From an uncultured Elusimicrobia bacterium (lineage in GTDB: Bacteria > Elusimicrobiota > Elusimicrobia > 2-01-FULL-59-12): a stretch of DNA of 32,000 bases. Each line of letters starts with the position of its first letter. Positions within the stretch are counted from its first letter, which is position 1. A model generated the notes under the pieces. That model was given only the letters and a program-made list of their open reading frames with translations, was not told the origin of the DNA and searched no databases. Shown in pieces: positions 1,391-25,555 of this stretch. The DNA is taken from the NCBI GenBank assembly GCA_964441955.1, contig CAYTWA010000002.1:137170-169169 (forward strand). The letters are read 5' to 3'. A program made the translations under genes and the position numbers.

Positions 1391-1430
1391 GCGAAGGCGC
1401 CCCGCACAGAGTGTTTAGCATGAGGCATCG

Positions 1431-1562: not shown

Positions 1563-1565
1563 AAA

Positions 1566-1585
1566 GTCCCGGGGGATACCGGGAC
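1566..1585 (-). terminator. weak candidate intrinsic terminator for the MNT gene
   Basis: GTCCCGG / CCGGGAC forms a 7-bp GC-rich stem with a 6-nt loop. On the minus strand it is followed only by TTTAA, so the U-tract is poor. Confidence 0.25.
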
Positions 1586-1637
1586 GCTACATCATCGAAA
1601 TCGCGTTGAGCCCGTTTGCTGCGGCACCAAAACCTAT

Positions 1638-2069: not shown

Positions 2070-2177
2070 GGCTGAATTGTATCTCAACGCGAATTCTTTG
2101 TTTTCGTTTTAGGGAAAATAAGCTGCCGAAGGCGGTCGCTTGCTGTGGCGGGCGATAAGTACAATTTCCACTCCGAC

Positions 2178-3884: not shown

Positions 3885-4594
3885 ACGACAACCCCGAGTA
3901 CATTAAGAGACTTCTCCCGTTACTCAAAAAACACTGGCCCAAACCATTGTGCGAGGTGAAGCACGAAAATGCTCTTCAACTGATGGTAGGCGTCATTCTT
4001 TCGGCGCAGTCGACCGATAAAACGGTCAACGACATCACCCCTGCGCTTTTCAAGAAATACCCCACGGCCAAAGCGTTTGCCGATGCCGATCCTCTTGATA
4101 TCGAGAAAATGATTTTCCGCTGTGGTTTCTTCCGGGCCAAAACCAAGTCGATCCAAAGGGCGTGTCGAATGTTGGTAGAAAAACATGGGGGCGAAATCCC
4201 CAAAACCATGGAAGATCTTCTCGAGCTTCCGGGGATCGGACGCAAAAGCGCCAATGTGATTTTAGGGGCTTGCTTCGGTATTACAGCCGGGATTGTGGTG
4301 GACACACACATGATAAGGCTTTGCACGGAGCGTTTGAAGCTTTCGCGAAACATAGACCCCGTCAAACTGGAAGCCGACCTCATGAAGATCGTTCCCCAAA
4401 AAAGCTGGATTTACTTCTCCCAGTCCATGGTGCTGCATGGCCGCTATATTTGTATCGCGCGCACGCCGCGTTGTTGGGAGTGTCATCTCATTAAAATGTG
4501 CCCCTATGCCGACAAGGTGCTCTCGACTAAATTAGAAGACAAAACATTCCCGTCCCGTCAAACGATTACCGGCGTTCCCGTTCTTGTCCGTTAG
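3881..4594 (+). CDS. nth: endonuclease III (HhH-GPD DNA glycosylase/AP lyase)
   Basis: HhH-GPD segment LLELPGIGRKSANVILG...VDTH and a 4Fe-4S cluster loop C-x6-C-x2-C-x5-C (CIARTPRCWECHLIKMC). ATG 3881 overlaps the polX stop (ATGA). The 61 upstream codons of the track ORF lie inside polX and are not coding. Confidence 0.9.
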   Translation: MNDNPEYIKRLLPLLKKHWPKPLCEVKHENALQLMVGVILSAQSTDKTVNDITPALFKKYPTAKAFADADPLDIEKMIFRCGFFRAKTKSIQRACRMLVEKHGGEIPKTMEDLLELPGIGRKSANVILGACFGITAGIVVDTHMIRLCTERLKLSRNIDPVKLEADLMKIVPQKSWIYFSQSMVLHGRYICIARTPRCWECHLIKMCPYADKVLSTKLEDKTFPSRQTITGVPVLVR

Positions 4595-4597
4595 GGC

Positions 4598-5650
4598 ATG
4601 CAGACATTTTCCGATTGGATGCAGCACGCCTTGTACGGCCCCAAGGGGTATTACGCCTCCGGAGAGGCGCAAAGTGGACGCGAGGGAGATTATTTCACCG
4701 CGCCGGATACGGGGCTTGCCTTCGGCGTACTGCTCGGCGCCATTTTTGAGCAGTGGGCGGATTCCTTCGCCGCGCGGCCGTTTCATCTGGTCGAATGCGG
4801 GGCGGGCACCGGAAAGCTAGCCCGCCAGTTGGAGTCATGTCCGCTTCCTTACATGGCGATTGAAAAAAGCGCCGCGCGATTTAAAATTCTCCAAGAAACA
4901 AAGCGCGCGGGCATGACCGTTTATCCCGACCTTCTTTCCATCCCCGCACGCCCGCTCCACGGAGTCATTTTTTCCAATGAGTTGTTTGATGCGATGCCGG
5001 TTCACCGAATCCGAGTTCACGAGGGGCGGCTTCAAGAAGGTTTTGTCACTCCGCAAGGCGAAATGTTTTGGGGCAACCCCTCTACGCCGGCATTGGAAGC
5101 GTACTTCAGCCGCCTTCATCTCACGCTGCCGGAAGGATATGAAACGGAAGTCAATTTGGCGATGCGCGCGTGGATGAAGGAGGCCGCGCAAACGCTTCAA
5201 TCGGGTCTTGTCGTGGCCATCGATTACGGTCGCCCGGCCTGGCAATACTACGACCGCGAACGTAGCGGGGGCACTTTGCGTATCTTTAAAGATCACGTGG
5301 TTCGGAAATTAGGGTCAGCGACTCAAGTGACATTGGGCGTGGATCCCCCGGTCGATATGACCGCGGATATCGACTTCACCAGTTTAGCGCTGGATGGAAT
5401 CGAAACGGGTTTTGAGCCCATCGCGTTTATGGAGTTAGGGACGTTTCTCATGAATGGCGCGCGTGCCATCTTGGGAAAGGGGGACTACAAAGCCAAGGCG
5501 CCTTCGGGGATGCGCTATCTCCTTCATCCGGAGGGCATGGGCAGCGCCTTTCATGTGCTTGTGTTAGGCAAAGGAATCGATAAAAACGACTGGGCATTTG
5601 AAGGCAACCGCCTTTCTCGGTTAGGATTGCCCTCATGGCACTGCAAGTAG
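4598..5650 (+). CDS. class I SAM-dependent methyltransferase, MidA/NDUFAF7-like (DUF185)
   Basis: The N-terminus FSDWMQHALYGPKGYYASG...GDYFTAP and the SAM loop LVECGAGTGKLA match what I recall of the MidA family. The start lies 3 nt after the nth stop. Confidence 0.75.
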   Translation: MQTFSDWMQHALYGPKGYYASGEAQSGREGDYFTAPDTGLAFGVLLGAIFEQWADSFAARPFHLVECGAGTGKLARQLESCPLPYMAIEKSAARFKILQETKRAGMTVYPDLLSIPARPLHGVIFSNELFDAMPVHRIRVHEGRLQEGFVTPQGEMFWGNPSTPALEAYFSRLHLTLPEGYETEVNLAMRAWMKEAAQTLQSGLVVAIDYGRPAWQYYDRERSGGTLRIFKDHVVRKLGSATQVTLGVDPPVDMTADIDFTSLALDGIETGFEPIAFMELGTFLMNGARAILGKGDYKAKAPSGMRYLLHPEGMGSAFHVLVLGKGIDKNDWAFEGNRLSRLGLPSWHCK

Positions 5651-6090
5651 GCGACAAAGCCCCCGACTTTGACTTAATGGCTGACCACGGCAAGCAAATC
5701 CGTCTGAAAGACCATGACGGGAAAAGCCTCGTGCTTTATTTCTATCCTAAAGACGATACCTCGGGCTGCACGAAAGAAGCTTGCGCCTTTCGCGATGATT
5801 TCTCGGCGTATGCCAAAAAAAACGCCGTCATCTTGGGGGTGAGTCTAGACCCCGTATTGTCGCACCAAAAATTTAAGAAGAAATACGACCTGCCGTTTCC
5901 ACTGCTGGCCGATGACGGGGCTACGGTGAGTAAGGCCTACGGCGTGTACAAACAAAAAAGCATGTACGGCCGCACCTATTGGGGTATCGAGCGTACGACA
6001 TTTGTGATCGGCACCGACCGCCGCATAAAAGGTATTTTCCCGAAAGTAAAAGTCGAGGGACATTCCGCGGAGATCCTGGCCGCTTTGTGA
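5635..6090 (+). CDS. bcp: thioredoxin-dependent thiol peroxidase (Bcp / PrxQ peroxiredoxin)
   Basis: LVLYFYPKDDTSGCTKEACAFRD carries the peroxidatic Cys in the T-x-x-C context, with a second Cys after four residues, as in Bcp. The gene overlaps the upstream gene by 16 nt. Confidence 0.9.
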   Translation: MALQVGDKAPDFDLMADHGKQIRLKDHDGKSLVLYFYPKDDTSGCTKEACAFRDDFSAYAKKNAVILGVSLDPVLSHQKFKKKYDLPFPLLADDGATVSKAYGVYKQKSMYGRTYWGIERTTFVIGTDRRIKGIFPKVKVEGHSAEILAAL

Positions 6091-6731
6091 CCGAAGTCGA
6101 CGCGCTGTTGTTTGATTTAGACGGCACCCTCATTGATTCCACCCGCGACTTAGCCGAGTCCGTCCGCCACGTTCAAGCGCATTACCAGTGTCCTTTAAGT
6201 TCGGATTCCCAAGTGGCGGCCTTTATCGGGGATGGCATCGTCAAATTGGTAGAGCGCGCGGTCCCCGGTTTTACCGGCCCAAAGCTCCATGAAGCCGTCG
6301 ATTTGCTGAAAGCGTTTTATCGAACGCATTGCCTGGATCACACACGCCTCCTTCCCGGGGTAAACCAAGTTTTAGAGCATTACCGTACGAAAACCTTAAC
6401 GGTTGTGACGAATAAACCCGAACGCGTTTCGCGCCGCATTTTAAAGGGGCTAGGAATCGACGGGTATTTCAAAAGCGTTTTAGGCGGCGATTCACGGCCC
6501 ACCAAAAAGCCGGACCCGGAACCATTGTTATGGGTTTTAAATACGTTCCAAGTTCCGCCCCGCCGCGCGGTGATGGTGGGCGATGGCCCAAACGATGTTT
6601 TGGCAGGACGAGCGGCCGGGATATGGACAGCCTCGATTCGCTCAACGATTTCTCACAGCCAGCCGCCGACCCCACACAAGGCCGATATCGAGCTTCTCAA
6701 CTTGGCCGATTTGATGCGATTTTTCAACTAG
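6087..6731 (+). CDS. HAD-IA family hydrolase, phosphoglycolate-phosphatase-like
   Basis: HAD motifs I (LFDLDGTLIDS), II (VVTNKP), III (KKPDPEP) and IV (MVGDGPNDVLAGRAAG) are all present. GTG 6087 overlaps the bcp stop (GTGA). The track ORF start at 5979 lies inside bcp. Confidence 0.8.
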   Translation: MTEVDALLFDLDGTLIDSTRDLAESVRHVQAHYQCPLSSDSQVAAFIGDGIVKLVERAVPGFTGPKLHEAVDLLKAFYRTHCLDHTRLLPGVNQVLEHYRTKTLTVVTNKPERVSRRILKGLGIDGYFKSVLGGDSRPTKKPDPEPLLWVLNTFQVPPRRAVMVGDGPNDVLAGRAAGIWTASIRSTISHSQPPTPHKADIELLNLADLMRFFN

Positions 6732-6881
6732 GATAAACGCCTTTAATCTCACCTCACAGACTTCTCAACACGCCGACAAAAATGAAAGATTCAAATGTCA
6801 AAAACCCTCTCTAAATAAGCCTAATTAAACGTTACAGGATCTTTACTTTCGTTTGAGGTCGCTTCCCTTAATAAAGGATAC

Positions 6882-7832
6882 GTGCAAAGCAAAAAGTTTC
6901 TCTTTGCCATTCTCCTTTTCCTTCCCTGCTGGGTCTGGGGCTCGTTTGAAGAGCTGCCCACGGGCGCTCGTCAAGCCGGCATGGGCAGCGCCTTTTCTGC
7001 GCTAGCCGACGATGTCTACGCCGCCTATTACAACCCGGCCGGCCTCGTGCAGCTGCACCGCTCGGAATTTACCGCCTATTATTCGAAGCTTTATGCCGGT
7101 TTAGACGACGGCTCCTCGATCAGTCGCAATTACGTCGCCTACGGTCACCCAACGCGCCGCGGCACGTTGGGTTTCAGCTATCTTTCGCTTTCGCTCTCCG
7201 GACTTTATTCGGAATCGGTGATGGCGCTCCACTACGCGACGGCGATCAAAGATAAATGGAACATCGGCACGAGCCTCAAATTTTTGCGCAAATCGTTCGG
7301 CTCCGACGCATATACGGAAAACGCCATCAACTCAGACACGGGCGTCTCGCTCGGCGCGCCAGACCCGCTTTTTTCCCAAAACGGCTCTTCGAAATCGGGG
7401 ATGGCGCTTGATGCAGGCATCCAATACCGCCTCTCACGCCTCTACGGTTTAGGCTTTACCATCTTAAATCTCAACAGCCCGAATATGGCCATCGCCAGCT
7501 CGGACAGCGACCCAGTCTCGACGGTCTATAAAACAGGTTTGGCTCGCCGCACGAAGAGTTCCTCCGTGGATGCCGAAGTGTCGATGCGCCAATTTACGGG
7601 GAATGAATTTCGCATCAACATCGGCGGCGAACGCTGGCTCAAGGGCGGCTTCGGGTTCCGTGGGGGCTTGGGGTTTGGGCAGCGTCAGTACCAGATGACC
7701 TCCTTCGGCGTTTCATACCGCTGGGAAGCCCTCCAGTTCGACTACGCAATGCTCTACCCACTCTCTGGTGTTAAAACGGGGTTTGGGTCGCACCAGCTGT
7801 CCATGACGTTTCGATTTGGAAGGAAAAATTAG
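6882..7832 (+). CDS. outer-membrane beta-barrel protein, FadL/PorV-superfamily-like
   Basis: GTG start after AAAGGATA and the signal peptide MQSKKFLFAILLFLPCWVWG. The N-terminal motif GARQAGMGSAFSALADDVYAAYYNPAGL is one I recognise from FadL/TodX and PorV/PorQ-type barrels. The sequence has an alternating-strand character with a near-terminal aromatic strand (HQLSMTFRF). Confidence 0.6.
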   Translation: MQSKKFLFAILLFLPCWVWGSFEELPTGARQAGMGSAFSALADDVYAAYYNPAGLVQLHRSEFTAYYSKLYAGLDDGSSISRNYVAYGHPTRRGTLGFSYLSLSLSGLYSESVMALHYATAIKDKWNIGTSLKFLRKSFGSDAYTENAINSDTGVSLGAPDPLFSQNGSSKSGMALDAGIQYRLSRLYGLGFTILNLNSPNMAIASSDSDPVSTVYKTGLARRTKSSSVDAEVSMRQFTGNEFRINIGGERWLKGGFGFRGGLGFGQRQYQMTSFGVSYRWEALQFDYAMLYPLSGVKTGFGSHQLSMTFRFGRKN

Positions 7833-7914
7833 CATGGTTTTACACTTTCGTTACAGGCTTGTGATGCGCACTTTACAGAGGGCCTTTAGACTCCTAGAGA
7901 GAGGTACAAACGCC

Positions 7915-9024
7915 ATGCGAATACTCCCGGCAATGATGGCAGGCTTGCTGATCCTGACGGGACCGGCTGCCTCCCTCCATGCCTGGAGTTGGGATGACGA
8001 TGAATCGATCGGGAAAGACGAACTGGAAACCCAGCTCTTAGGCTACCGCAAACGCGTCGAATCCGGCATCCCGCTTTCCGAACGCATCGTTCTTTTGGAC
8101 CGCCTCATCAAACTCTACGGAATTCATGGCCGAGATGCGAAAGCTCTCGAATTGGAACGCGCGCAGGTGATTGCCGACGAGCAGGCGGTCGCTAACGTGA
8201 GCGCGGCGTCGCGTGAAAAATCCCAAAGCCTTTTCCAACAGGCCTTCGAGCAGATTAAAAACGGTCATTTCCGTGAAGCGCAGCGCCTTTTGGTCGAAGC
8301 CGAACACCTAAACCCCCAGGACAAAATCATCAGCGATCTGCGCGCAAAGACCGACCAAGTGGCCGCCATTTTGGCGGAAGCGCCCCTCGACCCAACGGTC
8401 GGGGATTTAGTCAAGCGCGGGGTGTTGCAATATGTTCAAAACGAGCCGTCCAAAGCGCTTAATTTCCTTGTTTATGCGCAGCAAAAAGACGATACCAACC
8501 CGGATCTTCCGGCTTTGGTGGAATTGGCCAAACGAAGCGTCCCCGAATCGTCCGAAATTTTGGATACGCGTTTGAATTTAATCGACCAGAAGCTTCAGCG
8601 AGCCCTCGAGAAAATTTACTCCGGCGAATACTTGGTGGCCGCCAAAGAATGCCAAGAGGTCTTAGACCTTGAGCCGGATAACGCCTTGGCGCTCACCCGG
8701 TTAGGCTCTGTTTATTACGCCATGGGCCAGGTCAAGCAAGCGCGGTCCTATTGGAAGCAAGCGCAGACACTTGACCCCAAAAACAACGTGCTTAAAAGCT
8801 TTATGGACCAAACCGCCACGGAGGCCGACCGTGCGCCGGCTCAGGCGCTTACCTATAAGGTGGAAAAAGGCGATACCCTTCAAACGATTGCTGAAAAGGT
8901 CTACAAAAACAAAAGTGCCTGGCGGCGAATTTATGAGGCAAACCGGGCGTATATGAAAAACCCGTATCAATTAAGCGCCGGGCAAGTCCTGGTGCTGCCT
9001 CCGGGCGGCGTGTCGGCCCCCTAA
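7915..9024 (+). CDS. secreted TPR-repeat protein with C-terminal LysM (peptidoglycan-binding) domain
   Basis: ATG 7915 gives the signal peptide MRILPAMMAGLLILTGPAASLHA. TPR-like repeats are present (AKECQEVLDLEPDNALALTRLGSVYYAMGQVKQARSYWKQAQTLDPKN), followed by a C-terminal LysM (YKVEKGDTLQTIAEKVY...YQLSAGQVLVLP). The track start 7816 overlaps the upstream gene and is less likely. Confidence 0.7.
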   Translation: MRILPAMMAGLLILTGPAASLHAWSWDDDESIGKDELETQLLGYRKRVESGIPLSERIVLLDRLIKLYGIHGRDAKALELERAQVIADEQAVANVSAASREKSQSLFQQAFEQIKNGHFREAQRLLVEAEHLNPQDKIISDLRAKTDQVAAILAEAPLDPTVGDLVKRGVLQYVQNEPSKALNFLVYAQQKDDTNPDLPALVELAKRSVPESSEILDTRLNLIDQKLQRALEKIYSGEYLVAAKECQEVLDLEPDNALALTRLGSVYYAMGQVKQARSYWKQAQTLDPKNNVLKSFMDQTATEADRAPAQALTYKVEKGDTLQTIAEKVYKNKSAWRRIYEANRAYMKNPYQLSAGQVLVLPPGGVSAP

Positions 9025-9033
9025 TGGAGTGAT

Positions 9034-10518
9034 ATGAAGCGAACGTCCCTTATTGGCTGCATGACTGCGATGCTCCTCGTCGCGGGGTCCATCTTCTCTT
9101 GGGCCAAACTTGAGCGTGAACAATTGGCCATTGAAAGCCAACTGCAAAACCGCATCGAGGGCATTTTGTCGAAAACCCTACCCGCGAACAGCTATTTGGT
9201 CACCGTCAAAGTGGAGATGGATACGACCTCCAAGCCGGTAGGGGGGCGCGCCGCGCGCGCCTCGCGAAATGGAAAAAACCCGTTTTCTTCTCAAAGCCAG
9301 TTCGTCCTACCCGGGGTGCCTCAAAAGAAAGAATTCATCATGCAGGATGAAAAACCCGTGGAGGAAACCGCGGATATTTTCGAAACCGAAACGTTGGTCC
9401 GCCGTATCCTCATTACCATCTTGGTGGCGCCGGACATTGCCGCGGATCAAGTTCGCGGCCTTCGGGAAGTGGTGCAAGCCAGCATCCCATTTAACCCGCT
9501 GCGCGGTGATGAGCTCCAAATTCAAAATTCCAACCTTTTAAAACCGGTTAATCCCAGCAGCGCCAATTCCAAAAATACGCCAGCAGGCCAAACGCCTTCG
9601 CGCAGCGCTCTTTTTGACCGAGCCAATGCGCCTCTTTGGATTTTATTTGGTGTGATCGGCACGTTGTTCATCATCTTCTTGGCTTTTTTGTTTGGTCCAG
9701 TACGCAGTTTTTTGAACCGTCTCTTGGCGGTTTTGCCGCGCGTGGGCGAACAAGCCGCTTATGCCGTCAACAATGCTCCGGCCAAATCGGGAATGGCAGG
9801 AGGGAACGGGAATGGCACGCTCAATGGAACCCTCCAATCTCGGCGGAATGGGACGGACGTAGACGAGGGCCCATTCCGCTTTATTCGCGAGGACCAACTG
9901 AACAAACTTCCCATTCTTTTACGCCAAATGCCGCCCGCGCAGGCGGCTATTGTGGTGGCTTACCTGCCGCCGGAGTGGGCCAGTAAAATGTTTAGCGCTT
10001 TGGATTCCGGGGCGCAGGGGGCGATTATGGGCGAGCTGGCCCAAGCGCGCGAAGTCCCGGCAGAAACCGTCAAAGAAGTGGAAGCGTTTGTGAAGGGAAA
10101 ATTGCCGTATTTAGTCGGCGGGGTGGATTGGGTCCAGTCGGTCTATCAATTAACCCAGCCGCAAACCCAACGGGCGTTGTTAGGGTCGCTGGCGCAGCAG
10201 TCTCCTGATTTAGCGCAAAACCTACGTCGTAAAACATTTTTCTTTGAAGATGTGGCGGTCTTGCCGGCGGGTGCGATGCGTCTTTTGGTCGCCGAAGCGG
10301 GTTACCCGGCGCTTGCTCAAGCCCTGCGCAGTGAAAAAGTGGAATTTCGAAACAGCGTGCTTGTACGCTTGCCCGCCGCCACCCGCGAAATTATTCTTCA
10401 GGAACTCGAATTATCCGGCGAGGACCGCGCCGCGACCACCGAAGCTAAAGTCAAAATCGTCAACTTGGGCCAGCGTCTTTTAATGGACGGCCGCATCCAG
10501 CTGCCGGAGAGGAAATAA
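9034..10518 (+). CDS. bitopic/bi-TM membrane protein: periplasmic FliF/YscJ-like ring-building-motif-type domain + TM + cytoplasmic FliG middle/C-terminal (torque) domain
   Basis: aa 5-23 are hydrophobic (signal or TM). aa 27-165 follow a helix-strand-strand-helix-strand pattern (ESQLQNRIEGILSKTL / YLVTVKVEM / RRILITILVA / ADQVRGLREVVQASIP / DELQIQ), like the LExxLxxxIxxIxGVxxVxVxI ring-building motifs of FliF/YscJ/SpoIIIAG. TM2 is LWILFGVIGTLFIIFLAFLFGPV (aa 200-222), followed by a G/N-rich linker. aa 282-490 are FliG-like: ARM-type repeats (PPAQAAIVVAYLPPEWASKMFSAL), the MFxF-equivalent TFFFEDV, and a charged helix TREIILQELELSGEDR. Confidence 0.6.
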   Translation: MKRTSLIGCMTAMLLVAGSIFSWAKLEREQLAIESQLQNRIEGILSKTLPANSYLVTVKVEMDTTSKPVGGRAARASRNGKNPFSSQSQFVLPGVPQKKEFIMQDEKPVEETADIFETETLVRRILITILVAPDIAADQVRGLREVVQASIPFNPLRGDELQIQNSNLLKPVNPSSANSKNTPAGQTPSRSALFDRANAPLWILFGVIGTLFIIFLAFLFGPVRSFLNRLLAVLPRVGEQAAYAVNNAPAKSGMAGGNGNGTLNGTLQSRRNGTDVDEGPFRFIREDQLNKLPILLRQMPPAQAAIVVAYLPPEWASKMFSALDSGAQGAIMGELAQAREVPAETVKEVEAFVKGKLPYLVGGVDWVQSVYQLTQPQTQRALLGSLAQQSPDLAQNLRRKTFFFEDVAVLPAGAMRLLVAEAGYPALAQALRSEKVEFRNSVLVRLPAATREIILQELELSGEDRAATTEAKVKIVNLGQRLLMDGRIQLPERK

Positions 10519-10521
10519 TTT

Positions 10522-11349
10522 ATGGATTGGGTTACCCTTTTAGGCTACGTGATCGGGTTTGGCACCGTGGGTTTTGTGCTTATTTCCGGCAATTCGCTGG
10601 GGCTCATTTTTAACGCGCACGCTATTATCTTGGTGTTTGGGGGGACGGCTGGTAGCGTACTGCTAAGTTTCCCCGGTCCGATTTTGGCGCAAGCGGTCAG
10701 GGCTTTTCGGGTATTCCTGTTCCCGGGCCGGCGCCCGGAAGCGACCGCCGTCATTAATTTGTTGATGCGTTTTTCGGAAAAAGCGCGCCGCCAAAACCTC
10801 GAAAGTCTGGAGGGGGACGTGGCCTCGGTTCGAATTCCCTTTCTAGCCAATGGGCTGCGCATGGTGTTGGACGGCTTACCCGCGGAGATGGTGCGCAGCA
10901 ACCTTATTAAGGAAATACGTTTCTCGCGCGACCGGCATGCCCAAGTGGCCAACGTGTTTAGAAGTGCGGCGTCCTATGCCCCGATCTTTGGTTTGCTCGG
11001 CACGCTAGTCGGCGTGGTCCAGGTGCTCATGACTTTAACCGACCCTAAAACCATCGGCGCATCCATGGCCATTGCCATGACGGCCACGTTTTATGGAATT
11101 TTTGCGGCTAACTTTTTATTTTTGCCGGTGGCGGGCAAATTGAATGTTTACGCCCAAGAGGAAACCTTTTTGCAGGAACTGATGATCGAGGGCATTTTGG
11201 CCATCGGCCAAAACGAAGTCCCCGCCCTGGTCTTTAGAAAACTCCAAGGATTCGCGGAAGCACACAAACGCGATCAATTGGCGGCTGGACGCCTGGGAGC
11301 CGTGGGGGACGCGGCTCCCGGCGCCGGCGGCCGTCGTGAGGCGGCATGA
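10522..11349 (+). CDS. motA: MotA/PomA-type stator proton(ion)-channel subunit
   Basis: Four TM segments with a ~90-aa R/E-rich cytoplasmic loop between TM2 and TM3. The C-terminal channel helices ASYAPIFGLLGTLVGVVQVL and TATFYGIFAANFLFLPVAGKL match MotA family hallmarks. Confidence 0.85.
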   Translation: MDWVTLLGYVIGFGTVGFVLISGNSLGLIFNAHAIILVFGGTAGSVLLSFPGPILAQAVRAFRVFLFPGRRPEATAVINLLMRFSEKARRQNLESLEGDVASVRIPFLANGLRMVLDGLPAEMVRSNLIKEIRFSRDRHAQVANVFRSAASYAPIFGLLGTLVGVVQVLMTLTDPKTIGASMAIAMTATFYGIFAANFLFLPVAGKLNVYAQEETFLQELMIEGILAIGQNEVPALVFRKLQGFAEAHKRDQLAAGRLGAVGDAAPGAGGRREAA

Positions 11350-11981
11350 TTGAAAAACTGGGTCCCATTTTTGTTGAACGCCGAAACCAATACATTTGGC
11401 TGACGATCTACTCCGATCTCATCACGAACCTCTTTTTGCTGTTCCTAAGTCTTTTCGCCTTGTCCTATTTCGGTCCGGACGCCCTTCAAGATGCGATGGC
11501 TTCCATGAAAACTCGCCTTGAATACCAAAAGAAGGCCGCCCCCTGGTACGCGGATTTGGCGCACAACCTCAAAATGGTTTCTGACCAAGATGCGCCGATT
11601 GTGGCGCGTGAAGACCGCTTGCAGATGGCCCTTCCGGAAGAGGTGTTGTTCGGCGCGGGAGCAGGAGAGCTTCGCACGCAGGACCAGCTCGTGCTGCATG
11701 GCTTGGCTAATGCCCTGCGAAACGTTCCGTACACCGTTTTGGTGGAAGGCCATACGGATGACACGCCGCTTAAGGCCGGAAGTCGTTACGCGTCCAATTG
11801 GGAGTTATCGATGGCTCGGGCAATGGCGGTGGTCCGCTATTTGGTCAAGGTGGAACGCATGCCTCCAGAGCGGGTGGGGCTTGCCGCTTTTGGAGAACAC
11901 CACCCCCGCGTGCCCAACCTCTCGGAGGAAAACCGCGCGATGAACCGGCGCATCGAAATCAGCGTGCTGCGTTATGAATGA
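11346..11981 (+). CDS. motB: MotB-like stator subunit with OmpA-type peptidoglycan-binding domain (paralog 1)
   Basis: A single N-terminal TM carries the invariant Asp (WLTIYSDLITNLFLLFL). The C-terminal OmpA-like domain reads VLVEGHTDDTPL...SNWELSMARAMAVVRYL...NRRIEISV. The start overlaps the motA stop (ATGA). Confidence 0.8.
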   Translation: MIEKLGPIFVERRNQYIWLTIYSDLITNLFLLFLSLFALSYFGPDALQDAMASMKTRLEYQKKAAPWYADLAHNLKMVSDQDAPIVAREDRLQMALPEEVLFGAGAGELRTQDQLVLHGLANALRNVPYTVLVEGHTDDTPLKAGSRYASNWELSMARAMAVVRYLVKVERMPPERVGLAAFGEHHPRVPNLSEENRAMNRRIEISVLRYE

Positions 11982-12609
11982 GGATTTTGCCAACCCCTAC
12001 AAGCCCCTCATTGACGAGGATCGGTCCGAAGAAATAAGCCACCTTTGGATTGTTTCGTACAGCGACTTTATGACCATTTTGATGATTTTTTTTCTGATGT
12101 GTTTTGCGCACCGCGTCTGGGAGAAAAAAGTGTTTTTCGAAGACCAAAAAATCCGGCGCGAGCGCGCCATCCGGGAAGTTCAAGACGGCATGGTTCGACG
12201 GTTGGACCGTTTAAGTACCATCGACGTCCAAGCCGAGCGCATCGATATCCACCTGCCCGATTCGCTTCTTTTTTCCGGGGGGCAGTCCGACATGCGGGGC
12301 GCCGCTAAATTGCTGCTGGCCGACATTGTGCCCGACCTTAAGAAATTCAAAGGCGACATTATTGTGGAAGGCCATACGGACGATTTGCCCTTAGGTCGTC
12401 ATTCGCATTTCGGTTCAAACTGGGAGCTTTCAACGGCGCGCGCCTTCAGTGTGATCAAATTTCTCGAGCAGGAAGGGGTTGACCCCGGAAAAATGTCGGC
12501 GCGAGGCTACGGCGAATACCGTCCACGCGTGCCCAACATTTCGCCCGAAAACCGGGCCGAAAACCGGCGCATTGAATTGATTCTGCTCAACCCCAGGAAA
12601 GACGGTTAA
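11974..12609 (+). CDS. motB: MotB-like stator subunit with OmpA-type peptidoglycan-binding domain (paralog 2)
   Basis: The TM carries Asp (WIVSYSDFMTILMIFFLMCF). The OmpA-like domain reads IIVEGHTDDLPL...SNWELSTARAFSVIKFL...NRRIELILL. The gene overlaps the upstream paralog by 8 nt. Confidence 0.8.
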   Translation: MNEDFANPYKPLIDEDRSEEISHLWIVSYSDFMTILMIFFLMCFAHRVWEKKVFFEDQKIRRERAIREVQDGMVRRLDRLSTIDVQAERIDIHLPDSLLFSGGQSDMRGAAKLLLADIVPDLKKFKGDIIVEGHTDDLPLGRHSHFGSNWELSTARAFSVIKFLEQEGVDPGKMSARGYGEYRPRVPNISPENRAENRRIELILLNPRKDG

Positions 12610-12611
12610 TC

Positions 12612-14723
12612 ATGCCTAAAAAATGGTTTCTGATCATTTTGGCCATCGTGGTCATCCCCGTGACGATGACTTCATGGAAGGTGATTCAGTATGCCCGGGA
12701 ATCCAAAAGTCAGATTTACGAGCTCCACCGGCATATTGTAACGGCCTTGGCGCTCAATACGACCGCTTACTTCCAGCAGCTCAACATGCGCTTGGCCTTC
12801 GCGCCATTGTTGTCGCGTGCCAAAGGGTGGGGGGAACAAGTGGCGGTGCTCAATAACGCTTTGTTGTCAAATAGCGACTTTTCCTGCGTGGCCGTCATCG
12901 ATGCTTCCGGAAAGGAATTGGCCAAAGCCTTCGATATTAAAGCGCGGGGTTTCGCTCCGGCGCTAACCCGCGGAAACGATCCCTTTTTTCAAAAGGTGAG
13001 CCGCACGCGCAACGCCGATACGGGACCCGTTTATGAGCGCGACGGCATTTCCTATTTCGACGTTTTGTATCCGCTCGCCTCCGGGCAAATGTTGATGGTG
13101 GCGATTCGCTGGGAGGGCTTAAAAAAGGTGCTCTTCGACCAAAAAGTCGGACAAGAAGGCTACATCCGCCTGTTGGATGAAGAGGGCCGCATCGTCGGGG
13201 ATTCGCTCAACAGCCACGTGGGAAAGACGGTTTCTGATTGGTATTTTTTTCAAGATCGAAAAGAAAACGCAGCCCCTTGGTTCGGCGAATTCGACGATAC
13301 GCAAAAGGTCCCCTCTGTGGGGGCTGGGCAGTGGATCGCGGGTGCTGGGTGGTTTGTGCTTTCGGCGCAACCCCAATCGGAAGCTTATGCCAAAACGCGG
13401 GACTTGCGAAACAAAGCCTTCCTCTGGATGGCCGGCAGTTTCGTCGGGGTTTGTTTTTTTGGTTATTTTTGGGTCATGCACATCAGCCGCCCGATCACTC
13501 GCTTAGCGGCGGGTGTCACGAACGTGGCGCGAAGGCGCTTTGACCAGCACGTCCCGGAAGACTACGGCCTCGAAGAATTCCGCGCTTTAGGGCAGGCGTT
13601 TAACCGGATGATGACGGAACTTAAAAGCTACAACGACTTGCAGGTTGAAAAAATTATTGAAGAACAAACCACGAGCAAATCCCTTCTCTTTAACATCCGT
13701 GACGGCATCGTGATGATTAACGAAAAAAGCGAAATTCTTTTCGCCAATGACCCAGCCAAACAATGGACCAAAGACACCGCGGGCCGTGGAAAAGAGGACT
13801 TCAATAAATCGTGGGCTTCCTTACAAGAGTACCCGCCTTGGATGGACCTGTTGCAGCCCGTTTTAGATGGGGAAAAAGCTAGCTCTTCAGAAGAGTTCGA
13901 ATTTCCCGTGCAAGGCCGTCCCCGGTGGGCCCGCGTATTGGCCCAACCTGTTTCCACGGAATCTGGACGACGGTTGGGCATCATGGTGTTTATTCGAGAC
14001 ATTACCCAAGACAAAGAGTTGGACCGCATGAAAGAAGACTTTTTTAACGGGATCACGCATGACTTGCGTACGCCGCTGGCGGCGACGATCGGTTACTTGG
14101 GGTTGTCCGAGCTTCAGGTGCCCCAAGGCGAACAGGAACTGAGCAAATTGGTGAGTTCCGCGCGGCAATCGGCCAAGCGCGCGCTGGGGCTCGTAGAAAC
14201 CATTTTAAGTTTGGCGCGCTTGCAGGCCGGAAAACTGAACCTTAATTTTTCGCCCGTTCAGATCAAAGGGGTGTTGGAAAAAATTGCCGGGGATTTGCGT
14301 TTCCATGCGGAAGCCAAAAAAATCCACTTAAGCGCCGAATGTTTAGATGAGAAACTTTGGGTCAATGCCGATGCCGGTATGATCGACCGCGTGATCGAAA
14401 ACTTAACCGGAAACGCCATCAAATACACGATGGAAGGCGGGTGGGTGAAACTCTCCGCCAAGGCGGTGGATGAGGGCGTCATGATCTCCATCCAAGACAA
14501 TGGCCGAGGAATCCCTCCGGAGGCCATAAAAAAACTTTTTGGCAAATTCCAGCAAGTGAAAGCCGAAGACCGCGCTGTAGGATTCGGTATCGGGTTGTCC
14601 TTCTCGAAAGGGATTGTAGAAGCCCACGGGAGCGCCATCGATGTAGAGTCGGAAGTCGGTAAAGGGAGCCATTTTCACTTTACGTTGCAGCGCGCCCAAG
14701 CCCCCGCCGCCAAAGCCGCTTAG
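12612..14723 (+). CDS. sensor histidine kinase (periplasmic sensor domain, HAMP, PAS-like, HisKA, HATPase_c)
   Basis: Two TM segments (aa 5-22 and ~268-290) flank a ~245-aa periplasmic domain. Then come a HAMP-like segment (ISRPITRLAAGV...AFNRMMTELK) and the H-box FFNGITHDLRTPL (His483, nt 14058-14060). The N box LTGNAIKYT, G1 IQDNGRGIP and G2 GFGIGLS follow. Confidence 0.85.
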   Translation: MPKKWFLIILAIVVIPVTMTSWKVIQYARESKSQIYELHRHIVTALALNTTAYFQQLNMRLAFAPLLSRAKGWGEQVAVLNNALLSNSDFSCVAVIDASGKELAKAFDIKARGFAPALTRGNDPFFQKVSRTRNADTGPVYERDGISYFDVLYPLASGQMLMVAIRWEGLKKVLFDQKVGQEGYIRLLDEEGRIVGDSLNSHVGKTVSDWYFFQDRKENAAPWFGEFDDTQKVPSVGAGQWIAGAGWFVLSAQPQSEAYAKTRDLRNKAFLWMAGSFVGVCFFGYFWVMHISRPITRLAAGVTNVARRRFDQHVPEDYGLEEFRALGQAFNRMMTELKSYNDLQVEKIIEEQTTSKSLLFNIRDGIVMINEKSEILFANDPAKQWTKDTAGRGKEDFNKSWASLQEYPPWMDLLQPVLDGEKASSSEEFEFPVQGRPRWARVLAQPVSTESGRRLGIMVFIRDITQDKELDRMKEDFFNGITHDLRTPLAATIGYLGLSELQVPQGEQELSKLVSSARQSAKRALGLVETILSLARLQAGKLNLNFSPVQIKGVLEKIAGDLRFHAEAKKIHLSAECLDEKLWVNADAGMIDRVIENLTGNAIKYTMEGGWVKLSAKAVDEGVMISIQDNGRGIPPEAIKKLFGKFQQVKAEDRAVGFGIGLSFSKGIVEAHGSAIDVESEVGKGSHFHFTLQRAQAPAAKAA

Positions 14724-14774
14724 GTCTGGAATCCTAATTTGTGACTTCAAAAGTCTGAGTGGCATAATGTAGGC

Positions 14775-14957
14775 GTGTCCCTTGAAACCCATTCTGTTCA
14801 GTGTCCCTACTGTGGCGAGACCATCGAAATAGATGTGGAGCCGTTAGAAGAAACCCAATCCCTCATCGAAGATTGCACCGTTTGCTGCCGCCCGGTGCAG
14901 TATGAAGTCACATCAACAGACGAAGGCATCGAAGTAACGGCCGCTCGCTCGGACTGA
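14775..14957 (+). CDS. CPXCG-motif cysteine-rich small protein (putative zinc ribbon)
   Basis: 60 codons from GTG 14775. CPYCGE ... EDCTVCCRP is the paired-Cys pattern of the CPXCG small-protein family. Confidence 0.65.
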   Translation: MSLETHSVQCPYCGETIEIDVEPLEETQSLIEDCTVCCRPVQYEVTSTDEGIEVTAARSD

Positions 14958-14981
14958 CGGCGAGACCTTAAACGGCAGAAA

Positions 14982-15369
14982 GGGCGGTAAGCCTTGACGA
15001 CGGTAAGCCTTGAAGGCAGCGAAAGGAAACAATTTTTTAGAAAGACACAAACCGGCGTGGCCTGATCAATGCGTTCCTCAATGCTAATTCCACTGGCTGC
15101 CGTTTAGGCATACCGCCCCCCAGGTTTACCGCCGTCTGGTGTTGGAGAGACTCGGCTACCTCGAAGGTCGAGACGGGGCGGTACGCCTTGACGACGGTAA
15201 GCCTTGAAGGCAGCGAAAGGAAACAATTTTTTAGAAAGACACAAACCGGCGTGGCCTGATCAATGCGTTCCTCAATGCTAATTCCACTGGCTGCCGTTTA
15301 GGCATACCGCCCCCCAGGTTTACCGCCGTCTGGTGTTGGAGAGACTCAGCTACCTCGAAGGTCGAGACG
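14982..15369. repeat. tandem direct duplication, 2 x 194 bp, each unit internally self-complementary
   Basis: Unit 1 (14982-15175) and unit 2 (15176-15369) differ at only two positions (14990 a vs 15184 c; 15154 g vs 15348 a). Within unit 1, 14983-14993 pairs with 15123-15133, 15001-15009 with 15107-15115, and 15015-15020 with 15096-15101. Confidence 0.9.
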
Positions 15370-15538
15370 GGGGCGTGGGGGGCGTCTTACGTTTGGGGAT
15401 GGGAAGGCAAATGCAGCCGCTAAAGCCGCACCCCATGCAGCAGTAATTCTTTTTGCCGATTTGAAAACCTTGTGCGGTGGCCCAGCGGGACTTCTTTAAA
15501 TTGCAGTTAGTACAGGCGGCCATGGCGCATTGTAGCAT
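15350..15538 (-). CDS. possible small Cys-rich metal-binding protein (TRASH/YHS-like C-x2-C-x20-C-x3-C; SmtA-reminiscent)
   Basis: The minus-strand translation from ATG 15538 is MLQCAMAACTNCNLKKSRWATAQGFQIGKKNYCCMGCGFSGCICLPIPKRKTPPTPPSRPSR, with 8 Cys in the first 44 aa. The spacing C9-x2-C12-x20-C33-x3-C37 fits the TRASH signature, and GKKNYCCMGC recalls the NGLYYCSEAC of SmtA. No Shine-Dalgarno is visible, and the 3' end runs into the 194-bp repeat. Confidence 0.3.
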   Translation of the reverse strand: MLQCAMAACTNCNLKKSRWATAQGFQIGKKNYCCMGCGFSGCICLPIPKRKTPPTPPSRPSR

Positions 15539-15545
15539 CTGCCGG

Positions 15546-15725
15546 AAGGCGTTCGGGGGGATAACAACGTTTAAGGACAGCAAAGCGTTCAGGGTCCTGA
15601 CGGCGTTCAGGGACACACAAGCGTTCAGATTCAAAACGTCGTTCTTCGTTGAACGCCGTCATGCCTCTGAACGCCTTTGCGTCCCCGAACGCCGTCAAGT
15701 CATTGAACGTCGTTGTAAGTTGTTT
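15546..15725. repeat. ten tandem 18-bp units forming a long imperfect palindrome (GCGTTCAG arm / CTGAACGC arm)
   Basis: Units read in register from 15546: AAGGCGTTCGGGGGGATA, ACAACGTTTAAGGACAGC, AAAGCGTTCAGGGTCCTG, ACGGCGTTCAGGGACACA, CAAGCGTTCAGATTCAAA, ACGTCGTTCTTCGTTGAA, CGCCGTCATGCCTCTGAA, CGCCTTTGCGTCCCCGAA, CGCCGTCAAGTCATTGAA, CGTCGTTGTAAGTTGTTT. The symmetry centre is near 15645-15650. Confidence 0.85.
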
Positions 15726-15771
15726 TAAGGCCCAGGGCCCTTCAGGCTCATTTTTCCAGCCCTTTCGCTCA

Positions 15772-15800
15772 TTGGCCATTCCCTCGCGTTTGCCTATAGT
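15772..15800 (+). promoter_or_regulatory. candidate sigma70-type promoter of the giant ORF
   Basis: TTGGCC (15772-15777), a 17-nt spacer, then TATAGT (15795-15800), 37 nt upstream of ATG 15837. It is flanked by the direct repeat TCCCTCGCGT(T/C)TGC at 15780-15793 and 15800-15813. Confidence 0.35.
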
Positions 15801-15836
15801 CCCTCGCGTCTGCACCAAATAAAAGGCAACCTTACT

Positions 15837-18800
15837 ATGCACTTATTAACCCGCGTTCTTTCAACCGTTTTATCCTTCGCGCTCTTAATTCCATCCCTGG
15901 CACAACCGTCTTTGGCTTCTCCGGTCGCTCTTCCTTTTGACTTATCGCCACGCTTGGGCTTTATCACCGAGTCTTGGGCGAGTTCTTCTTCGGCCCCCCG
16001 TATCGTGATCATCCAAGACCTCCACCTGCACTACGAAACGCAGAAACGCATCATCAAAATTTTAGATCACCTCTTTACCCAGAAGATCGTCTCGGGCCCC
16101 GTGGCCGTGGAAGGGGTCGAAGGCGTCTACGACACCACCAAATTAGCCGTCTACCCCGCGGGCAAACTCAAAACAAAACTCGTGGACTATTTCCTTAAAA
16201 AAGGCGAGCTTTCGGGGGATGAGGCGTTCTCGATTCTCAAGGGTGACGGCAAGATTCTTTATGGGGTAGACAGCGCGTCTTATTACGGCCTTAACAAAGA
16301 CCTCTACAAAAAAACCCTGGCCAGCCGCCAAGCGTTGGAGGCCAAGCTCAAACCCATCCAAGAAGAACTTTCCTACTTAAAGAAGAAGCACCGCCGCGAC
16401 ACCTCGGTTTTAGGCCAAAACGTCAAACAGGCGGGTGAGATGGTGAACCTTTTGCAGCGCCTCTTGCATCAAGAAGTGACGTTGGAAGAAGCGCGGTATA
16501 TCGCCCAGCGTCTCCCGGCGTTCGTGGAGGTGTCCGAGAAACTTCTCTCATCTTCGTCCCCGCAGGTCGTAGGCGGGGACCCAGCGTCTTCAGATCTCGA
16601 AGAAACCATCCGCTCAGCGGTCGACTTCTACATCGTAGCCCTGATGCGCGACAAGCCGCTGGCGCAGAACACGGTGAAGCTGTTGAAGCGATTAAGCGAT
16701 GAAGCGAGTAAGCGAGTAAGTGATTCTCCTCACTCACCCACTCGCTCAATTGCTTATTCTCCATCACTCGCCCTTGTCACCGGAGGCTTCCACACCGCGG
16801 GCCTCACCCGCGCCTTTAAACAAGCCAACATCAGCTACACCGTCATCACCCCCCGCCTAGACAAAGCCCCCAGTGCGCAGTCCCGTGCGCTTTATGAAAA
16901 ACGACTTTCCAATATTTCTTTGGATCAGGCAGAGATGTCTTCAGATCTGCACCTTTCAGTAACAATGGTTGCTGTTCGTGCTAGTAAGGTTTTTGAATTG
17001 CTTCCTCTGGCTTGGGACAAGTTAACCGCAAAGCGAACACTCCGATTCCCTTCCATCCGGTTTCGTTCCCCGCGGCGTATGCGTACTCAGTTTGGTGGTA
17101 TCCCTTTTAACTCCTCGAACTCTGACAGAGAGGAAACGAAAAATTTGGCCGAGGTCCTTTCTCGGTGGTCTGGCTTAAAAGAAGATCTTCGCAATGGGAT
17201 CGCTCTGTATTTAGATAAAAAGAAATCCGAAGGTGTTTTTACGGCTGAAAAGGCTGCGGCATTGCTTGAAAAGACAATGACCCAGGTGGAGTTGTGGGCG
17301 ATCAGTTCCTCGATTGACCGGTTTACTCGTTTGGGCATCGTTCGGGCGATTGAAAATCAGCGCTGGGAAGACATCGTGACGGCCTTTAGTGATCAGCTGA
17401 AGTTTGGCACCGCGGGCCCTCGGTCAAAAGCGGCACTCACCACTGATGAATTGGTGTCACTTCGTGATCATGGTTTTACAGCGCCTATTTTAAAAGGATC
17501 CAACACCGTCAACAATGTGACGATCGCTCGTTTGACGACGGGTGTGGCGCGACACTTTAAGCGAACTCAAGTGGCGAAAGGGCGCACGACGCGCCCCCGT
17601 GTCTCCATTACATGGGACAGCCGCGTTCATGGGCGTGGTTTTGCCGATCTTGTGGCGGCCATTTTTATTCATGAGGGGTTGGATGTTTTCCTTTTCGATG
17701 TGAGTTCTCCAATGCCAGAAATGTCGTTTTCTGTGGCGGAACTCAAGTTGGACTTAGGGATCTTAATTAGCGCCTCTCATAATCCAGAAGCCTTCAATGG
17801 GTACAAAGTGAGCGACCCTGTGGGCGCTCAATTATCGCCAACACTGCGAAAAGCCATTGAAGCTTCCATCTATGGTGATCCTGCGAACGGCATTTTTCCC
17901 GTGACGTTGGAAGATGTCGCTTGGATTGTGAAGGCGTCCGCAAATCTTGCAGATCCTACGGGCGTTATTCGGCTACCCTCCAAAACCATGGGGCCTTTAA
18001 CATTCATGGCTTGGCAAGAAAACGGCAGGAAGGGTTTAACTTTTTTGGGACAGGAAGATCCCCCTGCAACTGCAAACGGTATTCCGGCCGTTCGCAATAT
18101 TCATGAAGCCCATCGCCGGCATGTGTTGGACCTTTTGTTGTTGCCAATTAACGTTATTCGTGAACATCTTGCGAATATGTATTCTTTGTATTCAGCCATG
18201 TATGGTAATGGGGAAAATACGTACAACCGCTTGCTGATGAATCCCGAAGGCCTGGGGTTGCCTTCCCATTCTGTAAAAGAGTTTGCCCGCTTGGATGGGC
18301 TTTTTCCTCTATTTGCAAACCACAAACCCAAAGCCTTGATCCCTGACCCTGGGAATTCGGCTGGGCAAGCCCATGCGTGGGCCGTGGTCATGCAGTCGCT
18401 TCGGGAAGAATTGGGTTCTGAAGAAAAAATGAAGCGAGTGCTTTTTCAGATTGGACAAAAGCGAGGGCTTGTAATGGGTACGGATCCCGACGCCGATCGC
18501 GCGGGTGTGGCTGTCCCCATACCAGCGGAGCAATTGTCCGATGACCCGTCCATTCAAGAAAAACAACTCGTCTTTTACGTGGTGCCGCCTCAATGGCGTG
18601 AGGAGGTGGATTTTGCGGCGCTGCGACTTCTTCCTGCAAACGATACCTGGGCGTTGATTACAAAATACCGCATCGATCGCCTTTCAGAGATTTTGACGTT
18701 TGATCAAAAGAAAAATCTGCACTTTTCGATCATTAAGACGCACGTCACAACGGATCAAATCAAAGCCCTTAAGGCCTATGCTGAGTCCAGAGGGTTTGCT

Positions 18801-23045: not shown

Positions 23046-23050
23046 CTTAC

Positions 23051-23575: not shown

Positions 23576-23588
23576 GAGCGAGGGCGTC

Positions 23589-25532: not shown

Positions 25533-25555
25533 AAACACCTTGATACACTGGCACG

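Follow-up and report, generated by a model that had tools for sequence, protein, structure and literature searches.

A conserved, probably non-flagellar gene block of Elusimicrobiota that combines a natural FliF-FliG fusion with flagellar-type stator genes and a PorV-like barrel gene

What is a flagellar rotor doing in an operon that contains no other part of a flagellum except its stator? The question is raised by a gene block at positions 6882-14957 of a 32-kb window (the whole stretch of DNA analysed here, 32,000 nucleotides of contig CAYTWA010000002.1 in assembly GCA_964441955.1, from an uncultured Elusimicrobia bacterium). An earlier note on this DNA had read the block as a single unit of eight genes encoding an outer-membrane (OM) barrel, a peptidoglycan-binding TPR protein, a FliF-like/FliG fusion, MotA, two MotB proteins, a sensor kinase and a zinc ribbon. 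Eight open reading frames (ORFs), all on the + strand, were recovered at the same coordinates; with the second gene begun at 7915, they are separated by 82, 9, 3, -4, -8, 2 and 51 nt, and these spacings equal those given in the note. Seven of the eight genes are shared by related genomes, and the flagellar rotor-stator parts among them belong to a real, conserved and phylum-wide system that is very probably not a flagellum.

The rotor component is encoded by the third gene (9034-10518, + strand). Its product of 494 aa comprises a signal peptide or first transmembrane (TM) segment, a periplasmic RBM3-like domain (aa 27-166; 9112-9531), a TM helix (aa 196-220; 9619-9693) followed by an FLFGPVRxF juxtamembrane motif and helix, a linker, and a cytoplasmic FliG_MC region (aa 286-484; 9889-10485). 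In Pfam and NCBIfam searches the protein matched FliG_C (57.3 bits) and FliG_M (33.2 bits), and its N-terminal half gave weak fliF and YscJ_FliF_C matches. A family profile, which was built from a 72-sequence alignment of the fusion, matched T. maritima FliG_MC (1lkv, E=2.7e-31) over profile positions 290-501 and a FliF chain (9yh6_Oj, E=0.0019) over positions 32-166. When the N-terminal half alone was compared with the Protein Data Bank (PDB), the FliF matches were marginal (E=0.02-0.03); they are collinear with FliF residues 241-287 and 404-449, the two RBM3 halves around the beta-collar.

The predicted structure agrees with this assignment. An AlphaFold2 (AF2) model of the fusion monomer (mean pLDDT 79.6) contains an RBM3-like core of pLDDT >90 with the order alpha-beta-beta-alpha-beta, in which a helix extending to residue 48 is followed by strands 54-62 and 122-131, helix 137-150 and strand 160-165. 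A 55-aa insertion (residues 63-116) with an invariant LPGVP motif lies at the position of the FliF beta-collar and is disordered in the model. Helices at 196-220 (the TM helix) and 222-246 and a variable linker lead to a confidently predicted FliG_MC at 286-484, and residues F218, L219, G221, P222, R224 and F226 of the juxtamembrane region are invariant. In a Foldseek search of the PDB, FliG_MC structures ranked first (E=2.3e-10) and were followed by RBM3/S-ring structures of FliF (7bk0_B, 8ftf and 8z4g; E of about 3e-3 to 2e-2, probability 1.0, target TM-score at most 0.58). Other families were marginal, such as EscJ at E of at least 0.1.

Intermediate sequences connect the two ends of the protein to their flagellar counterparts as well. 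When the N-terminal 262 residues alone served as query, an exhaustive HMMER search returned 64 proteins. Among 31 scanned distant relatives longer than 400 aa, FliG_M was detected in 28, FliG_C in 27 and YscJ_FliF_C in 18 (best E=6.5e-14), and one of the 31 was a canonical FliF; a word-indexed search with the N-terminal profile added little (P0171 and P0172). The FliF assignment of the periplasmic domain rests on the family profile, these intermediates and the predicted fold, as direct sequence search is marginal. According to profiles and models, the 494-aa protein naturally joins FliF RBM3 through a TM helix to FliG_MC, and it stands as the founder of a family. The picture of a FliG torque domain tethered to the membrane and to a periplasmic ring-building domain, which the note had drawn, is borne out.

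In flagella, RBM1 and RBM2 house the export gate, and RBM3 forms a 33- to 35-fold S-ring. No match to RBM1/RBM2 (YscJ_FliF) was found in the fusion, whose single periplasmic domain is the RBM3-like one. A separate FliG_N is also missing from it, a weak FliG_N match (22 bits, below cutoff) being located on the M domain; FliG_N is presumably dispensable, since the FliF and FliG parts are already one polypeptide. In this protein MPPA stands in place of the FliM-binding motif EHPQ(R), which has degenerated throughout the family. What has been kept is the torque-related part of FliG: ARM_M, helix_MC, the GG linker (G362-G363, invariant), an MFxF-type hinge (FFFED, aa 401-406) and a torque helix (aa 448-460) with R451, Q456 and E457. 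Linker and hinge alike are conserved across the family. Some relatives depart from this architecture. In L012:1691-3127 (P0116), FliG_M is followed by ADH_zinc_N in place of FliG_C, which is either a real chimera or an assembly artefact, and in L015:3791-5779, L016:10001-11890 and L020:10001-11923 an extra TPR domain, which would be cytoplasmic, is located after FliG_C.

The stator is encoded immediately downstream. MotA (10522-11349, + strand) is followed by two MotB paralogs, MotB1 (11346-11981, + strand; 4-nt overlap with motA) and MotB2 (11974-12609, + strand; 8-nt overlap with motB1). MotA matches MotA_ExbB in Pfam (80 bits) and aligns end to end with flagellar MotA/PomA, with E=3.4e-42 against MotA 9lu9 and E=1.1e-40 against PomA 8bri (residues 1-250 on PomA 1-247). 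The NCBIfam models of flagellar MotA, PomA and MotP scored 170-184 bits (PRK09109, 184.5), which is below their equivalog cutoffs, and TolQ scored 17 bits. The protein has four TM segments and the long cytoplasmic torque-generating interface of flagellar-type stators, and from its sequence it looks like a flagellar-type (FIT, PomA-like) rather than a generic stator in the terms of PMC12505986. Both MotB paralogs carry MotB_plug, an OmpA-like domain (Pfam) and the TM Asp within a YSD motif. Their nearest solved relatives are flagellar MotB, PomB and MotS, and they score 117-132 bits on flagellar MotB/MotD models.

Among deep relatives, three were tested (L011, L014 and L017), and in each of them MotB1 and MotB2 belong to separate orthologous lineages. 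The channel Asp of MotB1 is kept in every ortholog examined, and that of MotB2 has been lost in L014:6270-6869 (T) and in L017:13195-13965 (N). Since one MotA occurs with two obligatory MotB paralogs, one of which is able to lose its Asp, the sequences suggest a heterodimeric, asymmetric axle of MotB1 and MotB2. A known parallel for one A subunit with two different B subunits is Myxococcus AglR with AglQ/AglS.

It is well established that FliG_C takes torque from MotA via R90-D289 and E98-R281 and that MotB anchors the stator to peptidoglycan. The corresponding interface was compared in eleven fusion/MotA pairs. The MotA loop ARRQNLESLE aligns with ARKGGFLALEE of PomA (R88/K89/E96; E. coli R90/E98), and each MotA whose gene neighbours an Elusimicrobiota-type fusion has a basic pair (RR, RK or KR). 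Across the family, Q/E-E occupies the FliG positions that correspond to E. coli D288/D289. Co-variation is seen in the second salt-bridge pair: in the window clade, L019 and L020 both an early basic residue of the torque helix and MotA E97 occur, and in L011, L013 and L014 both are missing. Such co-variation, seen in few lineages, is what a real MotA-FliG contact would predict. The stator with OmpA-type anchors that had been proposed for this block is supported, and its MotA has the rotor-facing charged residues.

A species-representative scan (one genome per species) yielded eight distinct loci, all in metagenome-assembled genomes (MAGs) of Elusimicrobiota, one of which lies on a 2.72-Mb chromosome (OY969767.1). 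The order barrel, TPR-LysM protein, fusion, MotA, MotB1, MotB2 and kinase is identical in all eight, to the limit of each contig. Across these loci the barrel is 64-74% identical, the TPR protein 64-72%, the fusion 47-58%, MotA 66-77%, MotB1 71-77%, MotB2 59-66% and the kinase 60-68%. Housekeeping genes on the flanks are similarly or less conserved (Methyltransf_28 45-51%, HAD 48-54% and Bcp 67-70%), which speaks for purifying selection on the block. Barrel orthologs are 61-84% identical and occur on the same contigs as the fusion gene. About 80 full-length relatives of the 494-aa protein were found at 46-72% identity, and every attached source name is Elusimicrobiota; in an alignment of more than 70 intact full-length fusion orthologs the mean column identity is 52%, and dozens of columns are invariant.

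The linkage extends well beyond this close clade. The core of fusion, MotA, MotB and MotB is kept at 25-35% identity in L011, L014 and L017, and the kinase gene, which comes after motB2 in every close locus that reaches that far, has a HAMP kinase counterpart after motB2 in L011. An 800-aa protein and FlbD stand between fusion and MotA in L020, and in L016 and L018 no motAB adjoins the fusion gene. The whole L020 locus (1-16306; Elusimicrobia MAG GCA_002412545.1) encodes a protein of 14,454 aa, a barrel-TPR protein of 614 aa, a fusion-TPR protein of 640 aa, the 800-aa protein, FlbD (PF06289), MotA, MotB and MotB. Profiles, models and gene order show what the parts are, that their genes have long been tightly linked, and that the rotor protein has lost all that is needed to build or switch a flagellum.

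Taxonomically labelled family members belong to Elusimicrobiota (including L016 from Endomicrobia, L017, L020, P0127, P0140 and P0154), with two exceptions. One is P0295, a 705-aa protein on a 4.9-kb contig labelled 'Thermoprotei archaeon' in NCBI, which is most likely a mis-binned bacterial contig. The other is found in cultured Vibrio agarivorans (L019:8473-13127, GCA_965139855.1), which carries a divergent five-gene module directly 3′ of flgT/flgO/flgP. The order in this module is an OM protein-like product of 347 aa, a TPR protein of 157 aa, an RBM3-TM-FliG_MC protein of 567 aa (WP_290299576.1), MotA and one MotB. The N-terminal domain of the V. agarivorans fusion is related to that of the family with an hhalign probability of 96.8%. 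The 347-aa OM protein-like product was also considered as a relative of the PorV-like barrel and was rejected (hhalign probability 0.4%).

With regard to the OM side, the first two genes of the block encode a barrel and a TPR protein. The barrel gene (6882-7832, + strand) starts with a GTG at 6882, preceded by an AAGGA site and an AT-rich 150-nt gap, and encodes a protein that has a signal peptide and forms a 14-strand beta-barrel assigned to the PorV/PorQ/PorP (FadL-like) family. It scores 71.5 bits on PorV_fam over residues 24-312, nearly the whole model, which is below the cutoff of 90; its relatives in L016 and L018 reach 105.6 and 112.2 bits and exceed the cutoff. The AF2 model (pLDDT 90.4, pTM 0.85, 14 strands) has PorV as its top PDB fold matches (6h3i_F, E=4.8e-12, TM-score 0.70; 8gl6_F), followed by FadL/TodX. 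The second gene (7915-9024, + strand) encodes a periplasmic TPR protein with a signal peptide and a C-terminal LysM domain (Pfam TPR_2 52.5 bits, LysM 33 bits). Its longest ORF opens at 7816, and the ATG at 7915 has a ribosome-binding site GAGAGAGG and begins the signal peptide. Weak NCBIfam matches of this protein include the flagellar collar protein FlcA, tol-pal YbgF and GltE. All the domain calls made earlier, among them a FadL/PorV-like barrel (its best structural match being PorV of the type 9 translocon) and a peptidoglycan-binding TPR protein, are supported by Pfam or NCBIfam, with PorV_fam below cutoff in the window.

The barrel and the TPR protein are tied to each other and to the rotor. 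In L014, L015, L016 and L018 they form one polypeptide of 523-650 aa, with the TPR homolog as its C-terminal half, and the gene for this polypeptide is always directly 5′ of the rotor fusion gene, even where motAB does not adjoin. In addition, proteins encoded beside six deep relatives (L011, L014, L015, L016, L018 and L020) end in a domain of about 90 residues resembling the type A sorting domain used in type 9 secretion systems (T9SS). The L018 protein of 2,235 aa matches Por_Secre_tail (31.2 bits, cutoff 23); the 1,248-aa Kelch protein encoded after the kinase in L011 ends in a T9SS-like domain, and the same domain terminates the 14,454-aa protein of L020. Small proteins composed of a signal peptide and only the sorting domain occur in L014, L015 and L016 with weak matches (17-18 bits), and models of the PorU and PorZ C-terminal regions weakly match small proteins of L015 and L016. 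A related observation was made in the closest sampled relative, where L001:1-2958, some 5 kb upstream of the block, encodes a 1091-aa fn3 protein and a 129-aa protein of signal peptide and sorting domain only. Both have a CHU_C/T9SS type-B-like C-terminal domain, and neither has an equivalent in the window.

Two further genes complete the original eight. The seventh encodes a sensor histidine kinase with the Pfam architecture dCache-TM-HAMP-PAS-HisKA-HATPase (12612-14723, + strand), as had been foreseen, and no response regulator gene was found in the 32-kb window. The eighth encodes a CPXCG zinc-ribbon protein (14775-14957, + strand; Pfam Cys_rich_CPXG 58.5 bits). Of the claim that all eight genes form one unit, the part concerning the first seven stands, and the eighth has to be removed from it, because tblastn finds no counterpart of the CPXCG gene in the related loci and the gene possesses a promoter-like site of its own at 14739-14768. 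This gene is probably a mere neighbour outside the unit, and the zinc ribbon was accordingly rejected as a member of the system. A promoter/terminator scan of 6400-16000 gave counts at or below the shuffled expectation and nothing upstream of 6882.

What could these parts do together? As in the earlier note, we infer an envelope-spanning machine that would serve motility, secretion or OM remodelling. It seems moderately probable that this machine is a stand-alone, flagellum-independent rotary motor of the cell envelope coupled to an OM module. The fusion would oligomerise into a membrane ring, equivalent to a minimal MS-ring with an attached FliG ring, in which the covalent link stands in for the joint between the FliF C-terminus and FliG_N of real flagella. 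MotB1 and MotB2 may form a heterodimeric axle, and ion flow through MotA5-MotB1/MotB2 would turn the ring via contacts of MotA Arg/Lys with the acidic torque helix of FliG. That the fusion forms a ring turned by MotA5B2 units is extrapolated from what is established for RBM3, FliG_C and MotB in the flagellar motor. Such a ring could not build or switch a flagellum, because there is no RBM1/2, export gate, rod, FliM or FliN. Its periplasmic face may work with the PorV-family barrel and the TPR(-LysM) protein. The likeliest output, which is also the weakest step, would be at the OM: the moving, anchoring or exporting of surface proteins with a T9SS-like sorting domain, in analogy to PorV/SprF and to the motor of gliding and T9SS. 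Speculatively, an OM or surface output of the T9SS or gliding kind is favoured because of the recurrent PorV-family barrel, the periplasmic TPR arm and the neighbouring sorting-domain surface proteins. The dCache histidine kinase presumably either regulates the motor or reports on it.

Several points weigh against this motor. Ring formation and rotation of the fusion are predictions, the AF2 model being that of a monomer in which the proposed collar insertion is unstructured, and the similarity of the N-terminal half to FliF is weak in its own sequence. No axle or output component can be identified among the parts. On the OM side, no gene for a sorting-domain protein is present in the 32-kb window, and the sorting-domain matches of the small L014-L016 proteins are, as noted, weak. 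The LysM domain would fasten the TPR protein to peptidoglycan, as would be expected of a static scaffold more than of a moving part, and the LysM anchor and the kinase fit equally well a static scaffold with a sensory or other output. Upstream housekeeping genes are likewise syntenic in the close clade, so the synteny there is partly a matter of relatedness. The only cultured carrier of a distant relative, V. agarivorans, is flagellated, and its module adjoins flgT/O/P. Finally, the search for flagellar genes covered 32 kb of a 540-kb contig together with the flanks of the related loci, and a flagellar regulon could be located elsewhere in the genome.

The strongest competitor keeps the motor parts and gives the barrel and the TPR-LysM protein a purely static role as stator scaffold, comparable to the Vibrio T/H-rings (MotX/MotY/FlgO/FlgP/FlgT) or to Campylobacter PflA/PflB. 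The output would then be Tol-Pal-like force transduction or tethering, or the sensing of load or ion-motive force through the kinase. The LysM and the two OmpA-like domains as peptidoglycan anchors, the weak matches of the TPR protein to FlcA, YbgF and GltE models, the sensor kinase as a conserved member and the lack of a sorting-domain protein gene in the window are all consistent with it. However, Elusimicrobia already possess Tol-Pal/CpoB, the barrel is specifically PorV-like, sorting-domain proteins recur beside the barrel in six deep relatives, and a ring-forming rotor would be odd in a pure tether or sensor. Taken together, a scaffold of this kind appears improbable, though it retains a real share. 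The narrower proposal that the block is an equivalent of Tol-Pal was rejected, with TolQ at 17 bits versus 184 for flagellar MotA, Pal at 35 against a cutoff of 125, YbgF at 15 against 90, and a separate Tol-Pal/CpoB in Elusimicrobia.

A second explanation holds that the block is the motor cluster of an ordinary flagellum, with the other flagellar genes placed elsewhere in the genome and the fusion serving as both FliF and FliG. Every motor part is a true homolog of its flagellar counterpart, complete flagella are encoded by a few Elusimicrobiota genomes, the distant V. agarivorans module adjoins flg genes, and only a 32-kb part of this genome was covered. The evidence from the loci themselves points the other way. 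No flagellar or chemotaxis genes besides the block were found in the 32-kb window, and genes for type III export, FliM/FliN, rod, hook and filament were found neither there nor, in any Elusimicrobiota locus, at a distance of 10 kb or less from the block, which upholds the earlier statement that no other flagellar genes are present. The usual flankers of fliFG, fliE/H/I/J/K, are absent from every locus including the 10-kb flanks. The fusion itself is devoid of RBM1/RBM2, FliG_N and the EHPQ motif for FliM binding, and in V. agarivorans the module is accompanied by the carrier's own polar flagellar cluster. It was also reported that a complete flagellum occurs in only a few Elusimicrobiota, and that most free-living members of the phylum have no structural genes of the flagellum but do contain homologs of motAB, flbD and fliG, with a role described as "unclear" (Uzun et al., bioRxiv 10.1101/2022.07.08.499144). 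An ordinary flagellum is thus very improbable.

The survey also bears on novelty. The small stator-associated PF06289 protein, encoded ahead of motA in L020, is probably what Uzun et al. refer to as FlbD. In the literature, no description was found of a FliG/MotAB/PorV system or of a non-flagellar FliG system. The claim that no such system had been described therefore holds for the system itself, with the qualification that enigmatic motAB, flbD and fliG homologs of non-flagellated free-living Elusimicrobiota had already been remarked upon by Uzun et al., without a description of the system.

It could also be supposed that the block is a decaying relic of a lost flagellum without a current function, and a phylum that holds both flagellated and non-flagellated members is a setting in which relics arise. 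On the other hand, decay is difficult to reconcile with the more than 70 intact full-length orthologs and their invariant columns, with the preservation of coupled or overlapping start and stop codons, or with block proteins conserved comparably to or more than their housekeeping neighbours. The survival of the core at 25-35% identity, with domain fusions and new partners, indicates purifying selection and innovation, and there is very little chance that the block is a relic. The last proposal, a Zorya-type MotAB-like anti-phage system, was rejected and has a negligible probability, as PADLOC matches both MotB to ZorB models (60-80 bits, a generic similarity) and finds no ZorA match for MotA and no ZorC/D/E-like gene or other Zor component, the MotB proteins score higher on the flagellar MotB/MotD models, and FliG and FliF domains are foreign to Zorya.

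Compared with the flagellar motor's core, the block shares homologous FliF RBM3, FliG_M/FliG_C, MotA with rotor-facing Arg/Glu, and MotB with plug, TM Asp and OmpA-like domain, and it keeps the GG linker and the MFxF hinge. It differs in that FliF and FliG are one polypeptide without RBM1/RBM2, FliG_N and the FliM-binding motif; in the lack of FliM/FliN, type III export, rod, hook and filament in the window and the related loci; and in its two conserved MotB paralogs, PorV-like barrel, TPR-LysM protein and histidine kinase. Covalent joining of FliF to FliG has also been engineered in Salmonella and Vibrio, and the engineered fusions assemble into MS-rings in Vibrio (PMC11481574, PMC10941966). 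Those are full-length laboratory constructs within a complete flagellum, whereas the present fusion is natural, contains only RBM3 and FliG_MC, and probably occurs without a flagellum.

Among other envelope machines, T9SS and the gliding apparatus of Bacteroidota resemble the block in having an ion-driven 5:2-type motor and a PorV-family barrel, and in its relatives some of the neighbouring proteins, giant ones among them, end in a T9SS type-A-like domain. In contrast to GldLM with its periplasmic GldM shaft, the block has MotAB acting on a predicted FliG ring, and no GldL/PorL, GldM/PorM, GldK/N, SprA or PorU/PorZ was matched among the block proteins, in the window or in the loci examined. 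Elusimicrobiota lie outside the FCB group, and membership of the block in T9SS is not established. The Agl-Glt complex of Myxococcus likewise spans the envelope for motility and combines one A with two different B subunits, TPR proteins and OM barrels; unlike the block, its AglRQS motor is TolQR-type (of the generic, non-flagellar clade), is without peptidoglycan-binding domains and does not act on FliG. Tol-Pal and the flagellar stator scaffolds (Vibrio MotX/MotY/FlgO/P/T, Campylobacter PflA/PflB) have in common with it a 5:2 motor, peptidoglycan-binding domains, a TPR protein and an OM component. Tol-Pal is set apart by the MotA scores given above and by the separate Tol-Pal of Elusimicrobia, and the scaffolds by the fact that they surround a real flagellum.

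The remaining genes of the window are for DNA repair, polyamine, TonB-receptor and further housekeeping functions. At 14982-15372 there are 2.0 copies of a 194-bp unit with 98% identity, within an 880-bp non-coding gap between the CPXCG gene and the ORF of a 2212-aa protein (15837-22475). The latter has a signal peptide, phosphoglucomutase (PGM) domains I and IV, a hydrophobic C-terminal tail and two near-identical internal segments of about 110 aa, an architecture that is odd for a PGM-family enzyme. A few kb downstream of the block, a DUF6580 protein gene adjoins TonB-dependent receptor genes both in the window (22949-27568, two receptors) and in L001 (18180-21016, one receptor, with DUF6580 on the opposite strand), a pairing that reflects broad clade synteny.

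What would the proposed rotary motor mean for Elusimicrobiota and for the flagellar motor? A bolder version of it, based on analogy and held only tentatively, is that an RBM3 and FliG rotor, flagellum-derived or flagellum-ancestral and driven by MotA5-MotB1/MotB2, might power PorV-family anchors that hold sorting-domain proteins, including giant adhesin-like ones. It would then be a third gliding/secretion apparatus, independently assembled outside Bacteroidota, and if so it could explain the movement of non-flagellated, chemotaxis-equipped and even magnetotactic Elusimicrobiota. More generally, there is a credible chance that the block is a categorically new envelope machine. To our knowledge, FliG and the MS-ring are known only as flagellar parts, and every other characterised 5:2 motor that we know of (ExbBD, TolQR, GldLM, AglRQS and ZorAB) acts on quite different partners. 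If the proposed motor is real, the working rule by which FIT stators imply flagella (PMC12505986) would no longer hold, and the motor would be a candidate explanation for the enigmatic motAB and fliG of the non-flagellated Elusimicrobiota surveyed by Uzun et al. The fusion, as a single 494-aa protein, would offer structural and single-molecule work a natural rotor of very small size, and V. agarivorans, which is cultivable, gives an experimental handle on a distant relative of the system. The flagellar torque generator would then be a separable module that evolution has redeployed, or a module that predates the flagellum, and the latter case would bear on how the motor and the type III export system were joined.

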